A stretch of 64,000 nucleotides of DNA. It comes from Escherichia coli (GTDB lineage Bacteria; Pseudomonadota; Gammaproteobacteria; Enterobacterales; Enterobacteriaceae). Shown here in pieces: positions 54,244 through 55,730 of the stretch (its first letter is position 1; the number at the start of each line of letters is the position of its first letter). The position numbers and the translations under genes are program-made. The notes beneath the pieces are model-generated. The model was not told the DNA's origin. It did not search any database and worked only from the letters and a program-made list of their open reading frames with translations. The DNA is taken from the NCBI RefSeq assembly GCF_003019035.1, contig NZ_CP027447.1; one strand, written 5' to 3'.

Positions 54244-54948
54244 TTGAACAGACGATCCTCTGCTACTCAATTACAGCAAAAAAGCGCTTTGCTCAGAAAA
54301 ATGTTGCCCCTCATTTGGTGGTTAACAGCTGCTGGAGTATGGGCTACGGCAGGCACAGCCTGGATACTGCAGCACATGCATTGGGTTGCTTCACTAGAGT
54401 CTCCAGGCGCGTTTGTCTTCGCTTTGTCTGCGCTGATAATAATTGGTTTCTGGTTAAACAATGCGCTGAAAAGGCTCAAGGCATTAGGCGCATGTCTGGT
54501 CTATCTGCTATTAATCTTGCTTATTGGCTTTCTCTTCACCAGCCTTTTTACCTTTTCGAGCATAGCGACGGTAATGGGAATTACGGGAGGGATGTTTGCC
54601 ACAATGGCGCTGATTTTCTGTTGTATTAATAGGGCTATCCCGCCAGTCAGACAGTTATGTTTATATATCTTCTGTGGTTTGAGTATTGCTTTTGTTGTTA
54701 ACCTGATTCTCACCAGCAGTTTTTCCGTGTGGTTAGCGAGTATTTTGACTGTCGTTATCTGGGGCGTTACGGCTGCCTGTGAAGCAACAACACTGGAAGA
54801 TTTGATTCGTGTTGCCGACTTTTCTGACATTACGGGTTTTCTTCGCTGTACCGTTCCTGGAGCAATAACTCTCTATTTCAGTATTCTAACTGTGCTTTTT
54901 AGGATTGCTGTAACGCTTCTTGATTTTATTAATGGGTTAGTGTGGTAG
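54244..54948 (+). CDS. BI-1/YbhM-like inner-membrane protein, paralog 1 (234 aa)
   Basis: Polytopic membrane ORF; clearly paralogous to the next ORF (IWWLTAAGVWATAGTAWI vs IWLITALGVTATAGLAWI; CTVPGAITLYFSIL vs CAVTGALTLYYYFI). Confidence 0.8.
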   Translation: MNRRSSATQLQQKSALLRKMLPLIWWLTAAGVWATAGTAWILQHMHWVASLESPGAFVFALSALIIIGFWLNNALKRLKALGACLVYLLLILLIGFLFTSLFTFSSIATVMGITGGMFATMALIFCCINRAIPPVRQLCLYIFCGLSIAFVVNLILTSSFSVWLASILTVVIWGVTAACEATTLEDLIRVADFSDITGFLRCTVPGAITLYFSILTVLFRIAVTLLDFINGLVW

Positions 54949-55016
54949 TGCATATTGATGAATTTTTTGCGCTAATGGAAATAGATGTCGATATTTGACT
55001 TAAGGATAGAACAATA

Positions 55017-55730
55017 ATGAAGTCGCGGTCGTTAAATAACATAACTAATAAGTTCCAGCACGAAGCCAGAATATTAAACGCCATATGGCTCATTACCGCT
55101 TTGGGGGTGACAGCAACCGCAGGCCTGGCATGGATAGCTAAGTATCTCGATATCACGGCAACAAAATATGATTCACCGCAAATGTATGTCGCCATAGGAT
55201 TATTATTACTTTGTATGTATGGTTTAAGTAAGGATATCAACAAGATAAATGCCGCCATCGCAGGCCTAATATATCTGTTTTTACTCTCTTTGGTGGCGAT
55301 TGTCGTTGCAAGTTTAGTTCCTGTGCCTGCCATTATCGTCGTGTTCAGCACTGCGGGATCGATGTTTTTAATCAGTATGCTGGCAGGTCTATTGTTTAAA
55401 TTTGATCCTGGTTCTCACCGTTTTATCATTATGATGACGTTGACAGGGTTGGCCCTGGTAATCATCGTGAATGCCACATTAATGAGTGAACGACCCATTT
55501 GGGTAATAAGTTGCTTAATGATTGTCTTATGGTCAGGCATTATCTCGCATGGACGAAATAAGCTCCTTGAACTGACAGGAAAAAGCCATAGTGAAGAATT
55601 ATGGAGTCCGGTTCGTTGCGCTGTTACAGGTGCATTAACACTCTATTACTATTTTATCGGCTTCTTTGGGATTCTTGCAGCAATAGCGATGACGCTTGTC
55701 TGGCAAAGGCATACGCGGTTTCATATTTAA
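55017..55730 (+). CDS. BI-1/YbhM-like inner-membrane protein, paralog 2 (237 aa)
   Basis: As above; which of the two is the K-12 ybhM ortholog cannot be settled without an alignment. Confidence 0.8.
   Translation: MKSRSLNNITNKFQHEARILNAIWLITALGVTATAGLAWIAKYLDITATKYDSPQMYVAIGLLLLCMYGLSKDINKINAAIAGLIYLFLLSLVAIVVASLVPVPAIIVVFSTAGSMFLISMLAGLLFKFDPGSHRFIIMMTLTGLALVIIVNATLMSERPIWVISCLMIVLWSGIISHGRNKLLELTGKSHSEELWSPVRCAVTGALTLYYYFIGFFGILAAIAMTLVWQRHTRFHI

Follow-up and report, generated by a model that had tools for sequence, protein, structure and literature searches.

Within the window analysed here, a stretch of 64,000 nucleotides from Escherichia coli (contig NZ_CP027447.1), the core gene ybhL is followed by two adjacent genes for membrane proteins of the BI-1 family: an extra paralog, which we call X, and ybhM. 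Our best explanation is that the convergent core genes ybhL and ybhN enclose a variable array, which in the window is nearly complete (X, ybhM, a DUF3969 family gene and a gene for a protein of 73 amino acids), and that lineages differ at this place because whole cassettes have been deleted, replaced or inserted. K-12 would be a reduced form with ybhM only; in a few genomes a third paralog makes the array fuller, and in most related species the site is empty. X and YbhM would have kept the seven-helix BI-1 scaffold and lost the di-aspartate sensor that gates the Ca2+/H+ leak; they may act as immunity-type protective factors of the inner membrane, binding or blocking membrane-acting toxins from other bacteria, and would be kept under fluctuating selection and often lost. 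We are highly confident of the anatomical and evolutionary part of this explanation. The protective mechanism, taken alone, is a tentative proposal and may well be wrong, while the explanation as a whole, array history and mechanism together, seems to us probable.

The array consists of four genes on the same strand, in the E. coli neighbourhood moaABCDE / ybhL / ybhN / clsB / ybhP. The region is 100% identical to that of strain SCU-301, in which RefSeq annotates X and ybhM with the same coordinates. An initial annotation of the window, made from the letters and the open reading frames (ORFs) alone, had placed two adjacent genes of 234 and 237 amino acids here, and both the ORFs and the RefSeq records of SCU-301 agree with it exactly. 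It had also counted three BI-1-like genes in a row directly downstream of ybhL, and this is what is found: ybhL, X and ybhM are consecutive, with ybhL set off by its terminator. The variable unit runs further than was first drawn, to the DUF3969 and 73-residue protein genes (55789-56380). Similarity to K-12 stops at 54144, within the ybhL terminator, as located by the BLAST breakpoint. The segment that begins there (segment A) has as its counterpart in K-12-type genomes an unrelated 196-bp leader with ybhM's own promoter, and the segment after ybhM (segment B) corresponds to 26 bp in K-12 and E32. The flanks have a GC content of about 0.55, X and ybhM one of 0.40-0.45, and the DUF3969 and 73-residue protein genes one of about 0.30.

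The frequency of each part was counted over a set of 5,426 complete E. coli genomes. Of these, 749 (about 14%) have X and 4,677 do not, a check of synteny and presence that speaks against X being ordinary core content, the outcome that would have refuted the initial annotation. The statement made there that K-12 has a single ybhM is also borne out, K-12-lineage genomes having ybhL, a 204-bp spacer and ybhM, with no X. Compared with the allele of the window, all but about 20 of the 749 X copies reach a DNA identity of only about 89.5%, and 28 of 30 copies sampled are annotated as intact. A match to ybhM was found in 5,399 genomes, near full length in 4,796, and alleles at least 95% identical in DNA to that of the window occur in 3 genomes only. 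The pair of DUF3969 and 73-residue protein genes is found in 28 genomes, and its close homologs are confined to Escherichia/Shigella; a third paralog, Y, is present in 2 genomes, and the complete arrangement of the window in 19. X is an accessory paralog carried by about 1 in 7 E. coli genomes, annotated in RefSeq yet unstudied, and as such it is ordinary accessory variation. A plasmid-borne X was considered and rejected, since a tblastn search of plasmids gave only three mislabelled chromosomal records. In P0105, one protein has Pfam matches to both DUF3969 and Fic; the Fic match is weak, and the gene adjoins an insertion sequence (IS).

To place the gap among relatives, ybhL-anchored loci were fetched from 80 species, and both ybhL and ybhN were recovered in 47. 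The distance between the two genes is at most 200 bp in 38 of these species, 201-400 bp in 2 and larger in 7; the gap is empty, too, in L005, a representative labelled E. coli. The space between ybhL and ybhN is a small insertion hotspot, empty in most relatives, and at least nine configurations of it were seen across the genomes examined. Genes of the X/YbhM clade lie directly after ybhL in E. albertii (L006), in the Pseudocitrobacter-type loci L019 and L096, in Phytobacter (L062), in the Kluyvera-like L085, and in L095, to which the nearest fetched locus is that of Citrobacter, at 83%. L096 has two clade paralogs after ybhL, 35% identical to each other, and a pair of BI-1-like genes at this place is therefore not unique to E. 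coli. An Escherichia locus (L097) matches the window collinearly (94-96% identity) and has in addition paralog Y between ybhM and the DUF3969 gene (5971-6700, 232 amino acids, 35% identical to YbhM), so that four BI-1-fold genes are consecutive there. E. coli 042 (L090, 2787-5482) carries a ybhM with an internal stop, the DUF3969 gene, a gene for a 152-residue protein that has no Pfam or NCBIfam match, a SUKH-4 gene and the 73-residue protein gene, the product of which is 82% identical to that of the window. The last of these always stands last before the ybhN stop, 042 included. Two side observations belong to the same survey. In E. albertii (L006, 7063-8724), a 553-residue phosphoethanolamine-transferase-like protein is encoded directly after ybhL, upstream of a ybhM remnant; NCBIfam relates it to CptA/EptA/MCR, with all matches under the cut-offs. 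A 118-residue ORF in L043 looks RelE/ParE-like by eye and has no NCBIfam support.

The history of the gap can be read in part from what the cassettes left behind. K-12 and E32, which have no DUF3969/73-residue protein gene pair, keep the last ~15 nucleotides (nt) of the 73-residue protein gene (AAAGAACTTAACTAA) beside the ybhN stop, and both are therefore likely to be deletion derivatives reduced on the 3' side; this remnant is not present at the empty site of L005. F9792 keeps the upstream region and the first bases of X together with a 3' remnant of ybhM, and E. albertii keeps a remnant of the K-12-type ybhM leader together with a 3' fragment of ybhM. In 042, a 69-bp repeat of the DUF3969 gene's 3' end stands on both sides of the insert that holds the 152-residue protein and SUKH-4 genes. 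The remnants show, as we read them, repeated deletion and cassette exchange at the gap. They also show that the K-12 form is in all likelihood a reduced derivative of a longer array, at least for its 3' half; the earlier idea that the locus of the window is expanded relative to K-12 has to be turned around to that extent.

The relationship of the two proteins is distant. Over 211 residues, X and YbhM can be aligned colinearly with 28% identity (E=5e-22, composition-adjusted); identity to YbhL is 25-26% for both (E 1e-11 to 2e-12). The initial annotation called them clearly paralogous, which holds in the sense that the pairwise alignment makes them homologous; at 28% identity, however, neither looks like a recent copy of the other. 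A phmmer search over 1.84 billion cluster representatives returned only 13 proteins at E<=1e-10, and the X/YbhM clade therefore appears very small and quick to diverge. X has 36-37% identity with clade members of other genera, as against 28% with the YbhM next to it, and YbhM is 35% identical to the E. albertii-type variant. A neighbour-joining tree (200 bootstraps) sets the clade apart from YbhL-type proteins as monophyletic (97%), and in it YbhM forms with the E. albertii and Pseudocitrobacter variants a subclade supported at 100%, with X outside. X does not belong to the YbhM orthologous group; the gene at 55017-55730 does, with 88% amino-acid identity and a position directly before the convergent ybhN. 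A hidden Markov model (HMM) of the clade matches all YbhL orthologs at 100-120 bits, so the clade would be an offshoot of YbhL-type BI-1 proteins. By these comparisons, X and YbhM are old paralogs in different subclades of what appears to be a small offshoot restricted to Enterobacteriaceae, and not the products of a recent duplication.

That both are polytopic membrane proteins of the BI-1/YbhM type, as first proposed, is supported by full-length family matches and by the model of X. Residues 19-222 of X match positions 2-204 of the 207 in Pfam PF01027 (Bax1-I) at E=1.1e-12, and residues 19-223 of YbhM match positions 3-206 at E=4.4e-18. An AlphaFold2 model of X, built on a 15-sequence clade alignment, has a mean predicted local distance difference test score (pLDDT) of 84.5 and a predicted template modelling score (pTM) of 0.80, with seven long helices, one short helix and an N-terminal tail of about 20 residues; a hydropathy scan is partly consistent with the seven helices. 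Searched against AFDB50, the model finds its own clade at template modelling (TM) scores of 0.8-0.9 and canonical BI-1/YccA models at only about 0.5-0.6, and there was no significant structural match between it and the crystal structures of BsYetJ. The sensor residues are where the clade parts from its relatives. In BsYetJ and in human TMBIM proteins, the di-aspartyl residues gate the Ca2+ leak and pH sensing (PMC8589314). Aligned to BsYetJ, YbhL retains both aspartates (in AYDTQ and LYLDF); the residues at the positions of D171 and D195 are D/D in YbhL, Glu/Ser in X and Gly/Tyr in YbhM, and other members of the clade also vary at both columns. X and YbhM, of BI-1 fold by sequence, are thus unlikely to be BI-1-type channels, because the di-aspartate sensor has been lost. 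Neither has any NCBIfam match at E<=0.01, and hence none to the YccA equivalog NF007765; YbhL itself matches this model weakly, at 24 bits, far under the 353-bit cut-off.

Selection on the array was assessed by comparing three haplotypes, using the ratio of the nonsynonymous to the synonymous substitution rate (dN/dS). It is 0.35-0.41 for X, 0.25-0.43 for ybhM, 0.28-0.75 for the DUF3969 gene and 0.12-0.40 for the 73-residue protein gene, and for moaE, ybhL, ybhN and clsB it is 0.00-0.06 (ybhL 0.00-0.03, ybhN 0.01-0.05), with the exception of one moaE pair at 0.29 that rests on two substitutions. The dN of X and ybhM is 10-20 times that of ybhL, while dS is similar, at 0.03-0.56 in the array genes and mostly 0.05-0.30 in the flanks. 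Protein identity between array alleles is 83-90%, with intact ORFs, and X has stayed open through about 74 substitutions between alleles. Ancient balanced alleles were considered as the cause of this low identity and rejected, dS being equal to that of the flanking core genes; weak constraint, rather than unusual age of the alleles, is therefore the likely source. With dN/dS below 1 and the ORFs open, some purifying selection would still persist. Loss is nevertheless common: about 600 of the 5,426 genomes have no near-full-length ybhM match, and those sampled carry an in-frame internal deletion of 324 bp. In SCU-482 (L004, 3398-3787) this deletion leaves a product of 129 amino acids, and the BLAST pieces overlap by 10 nt, suggesting microhomology. 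The internal ybhM stop of 042 and IS insertions are further inactivations.

Three other explanations were weighed. The initial annotation had offered tandem duplication and divergence as one possible origin of the gene pair, and a recent duplication of ybhM in the lineage of the window would account for two homologous genes of near-equal length lying next to each other on the same strand. It would not, however, account for proteins only 28% identical where dS between E. coli haplotypes is only 0.1-0.3, nor for well-supported subclades in which X and YbhM each group with other genera, X being closer to proteins of those genera than to YbhM and falling outside the YbhM subclade. Several divergent haplotypes, moreover, carry X, and a protein 83% identical to it is on record for E. 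albertii. Identity, tree and haplotype spread together effectively refute a recent duplication, to which we give hardly any credence. It is also conceivable that the array is a set of decaying relics without present function, X being a remnant yet to be lost in 14% of strains. The raised dN/dS, the repeated deletions, the pseudogenes and the IS insertions are what one would expect of relics, as are the TTG start of X, with a stop where other alleles have a 12-codon ATG-initiated extension, and a promoter signal not above chance. Relics would hardly keep dN/dS clearly below 1 in X and ybhM or an ORF that has survived so many substitutions, nearly all sampled copies of X are annotated as intact, and clade members are kept at the same site in several genera; we regard this explanation as very unlikely.

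The rival that takes the fold at face value sees in X and YbhM housekeeping or stress proteins of the ordinary BI-1 kind, either leak channels like BsYetJ or FtsH substrates and modulators like YccA, which add capacity of the YbhL type. It draws on the full-length Bax1-I matches, on the match of the clade HMM to every YbhL, and on the seven helices and N-terminal tail of about 20 residues in the model, as in YccA; ybhM is moreover near-core in E. coli and is induced late on lettuce in O157. Against these stand the replacement of both sensor aspartates in columns that vary across the clade, the failure to match the YccA equivalog model, and a dN 10-20 times that of ybhL. Frequent inactivation, seen in the genomes with no near-full-length ybhM, in the 042 stop and in the IS insertions, also sits poorly with a housekeeping role, as do the low scores of the model against canonical BI-1/YccA models and its lack of a match to the YetJ crystal structures. 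We consider a housekeeping role unlikely.

The proposal of a protective function comes from the company that the clade keeps. In L095 (4732-5908), the clade gene at the ybhL site is followed by genes for two polytopic proteins whose only matches (E 7e-5 and 8e-8) are to the NCBIfam family 'immunity protein Sip4'. A corresponding trio, with 36-43% identity, is found in L086 (1821-2986), away from the ybhL site and beside an IS3 transposase gene, with Sip4 matches at E 8.5e-9 and 3e-4, and a Sel1-repeat protein is encoded nearby. All four Sip4-like proteins are of about 185-203 amino acids, with near full-length coverage of the profile. Sip4 is a proven inner-membrane immunity protein to Ssp4, a type VI secretion system (T6SS) pore-former in Serratia (PMC12669606). 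In 042, as described above, a SUKH-4 immunity gene lies within the array (Pfam E=6.9e-6). In Enterobacter sp. BIGb0383 (L033, 6763-11553), the same gap holds a gene for a 611-residue phospholipase-D-type protein and then three tandem genes for Sel1-repeat lipoproteins of about 328 amino acids, which match PDB entries 5jkp, 6lch and 5jjo at E 1e-35 to 1e-39. These entries are presumably Tli5-type proteins, and the arrangement would resemble the Tle5/Tli5 effector-immunity modules of the T6SS. The gap itself has the marks of a variable cassette site, namely a fixed place, changing content, and remnants and repeats at the junctions. The leader between ybhL and ybhM in K-12 carries a mapped ybhM promoter and an H-NS flag (PMC3946193). 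Sip4-like and SUKH-4 company, fast evolution, presence/absence polymorphism, low GC content and the H-NS flag together suggest a protective, conflict-related role.

It is worth pointing out how much weighs against our explanation. The Sip4-like proteins score 21-36 bits against a curated cut-off of 240. Profile searches recognised no immunity family among the array genes of the window, and X, YbhM, the DUF3969 protein and the 73-residue protein have no match in PADLOC, PHROGs or NCBIfam. No toxin-like ORF was found in or beside the array in the window, where the flanks are moa, ybhL, ybhN, clsB and ybhP, and no toxin gene adjoins the array in any E. coli variant examined. To our knowledge, no BI-1-fold protein is known as an immunity protein. 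That nearly all E. coli have ybhM is more what one expects of a resident gene than of a typical orphan immunity gene, and dN/dS values below 1, though raised, are explained equally well by relaxed constraint. As to the history of the array, a search for a remnant of X in the 196-bp leader of K-12 gave a best local alignment no better than that of shuffled sequence. Since E. albertii on its side keeps a remnant of that leader, the forms with and without X both appear to be old, and the change between them may have gone either way.

What the locus offers in any case is a well-resolved case of a small chromosomal hotspot, flanked by two core genes, that gains and loses cassettes. It gives a context for the uncharacterised ybhM of K-12, which would be the last survivor of a longer array, has lost the BI-1 channel motif, and encodes a protein evolving 10-20 times faster than its neighbours; a literature search returned no work on the function of ybhM and no mention of DUF3969. 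If the immunity link is functional, it would provide a testable role for ybhM and DUF3969 and add a new fold to the membrane immunity proteins. One could go further and see in the X/YbhM clade a new family, made up of membrane immunity proteins or decoys with a degenerate BI-1 scaffold, that guards against membrane-acting toxins of other bacteria, for example T6SS pore-formers of the Ssp4 type. The gap would then be a conserved enterobacterial docking site at which orphan protective genes collect and decay, and the DUF3969 and 73-residue proteins would be further, undescribed immunity families. We think this extended version quite unlikely.

The coordinates of the locus are collected in the table below. 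The terminator scan called no terminator on the + strand in the spacer between X and ybhM, so co-transcription of the two genes is likely. A promoter scan found promoter-like sites in a number not above chance. The start of X may differ between alleles and is uncertain in the window, since TAA stands where L094, P0002 and P0005 have CAA inside a 12-codon, ATG-initiated extension (54220-54246). A 150-residue ORF in another frame (54177-54629), overlapping the X start, has no support and is probably spurious. The 73-residue protein has no family match. Within ybhL, a patch at 53400-53599 is only 86-90% identical to the E32/K-12 allele. With 4 amino-acid changes, ybhL has a dS of 0.22-0.30, roughly double the value for moaE; a divergent haplotype block or recombination tract seems to reach into ybhL, and the ybhN side returns abruptly to about 97%.

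Table. Features of the ybhL-ybhN locus, in coordinates of the window unless a locus is named (aa, amino acids)
Feature	Position	Strand	Description	Basis
ybhL	53395..54099	+	canonical BI-1-type gene, 5' anchor of the variable site	PGAP annotation in identical strain
ybhL intrinsic terminator	54119..54149	+	8-bp stem, 6 G-C pairs, T-run; hairpin 54119-54139	terminator scan, sequence reading
Variable segment A	54145..55052	.	908 bp	BLAST breakpoints
X, extra BI-1-fold paralog	54244..54948	+	234 aa, TTG start, 7 predicted helices	ORF and RefSeq annotation
X-ybhM spacer	54949..55016	+	68 bp	
ybhM	55017..55730	+	237 aa; rare allele, 88% aa identity to K-12 YbhM	
Variable segment B	55722..56365	.	644 bp, GC ~0.30-0.37	BLAST breakpoints, composition, junction sequences
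DUF3969 family gene	55789..56145	+	118 aa	Pfam PF13108, E=7e-14; annotated in SCU-301
73-aa gene	56159..56380	+		annotated in SCU-301
3' remnant of the 73-aa gene	window 56366-56383; L003 3196-3213			
ybhN	56384..57340	-	convergent conserved gene, 3' anchor of the variable site	

Among the systems with which X and YbhM can be compared, Sip4 is a possible functional analogy only, in that it too is a small polytopic protein of the inner membrane. In L095 and L086, genes of the X/YbhM clade share their cassettes with distant Sip4-like genes, but Sip4 has no sequence homology to X or YbhM, and the array of the window contains no Sip4-like gene and no Ssp4-like effector. YccA, a substrate and inhibitor of FtsH, belongs to the same superfamily, is similar in size, and has a cytoplasmic N-terminal tail; it differs in that X and YbhM leave the NCBIfam YccA equivalog unmatched, whereas YbhL matches it weakly. 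With YbhL and BsYetJ (PDB 4PGR), the canonical pH-sensitive Ca2+ leak channels, X and YbhM share full-length homology and the prediction of seven helices. YbhL, however, keeps the D/D pair at a dN/dS of about 0.03, whereas in X and YbhM the sensor is replaced and dN/dS is 0.25-0.43. The remaining comparison is with YbhM of K-12 (b0787), an inner-membrane protein of the BI-1 family, of which the product of 55017-55730 is the ortholog, with the same position and length and 88% amino-acid identity. The ybhM of the window differs from that of K-12 in having no K-12-type leader and promoter and in sitting behind X. X, for its part, has the fold family, the length and the N-terminal tail of K-12 YbhM and has likewise lost the di-aspartate motif; it differs in being only 28% identical and in falling in another subclade.

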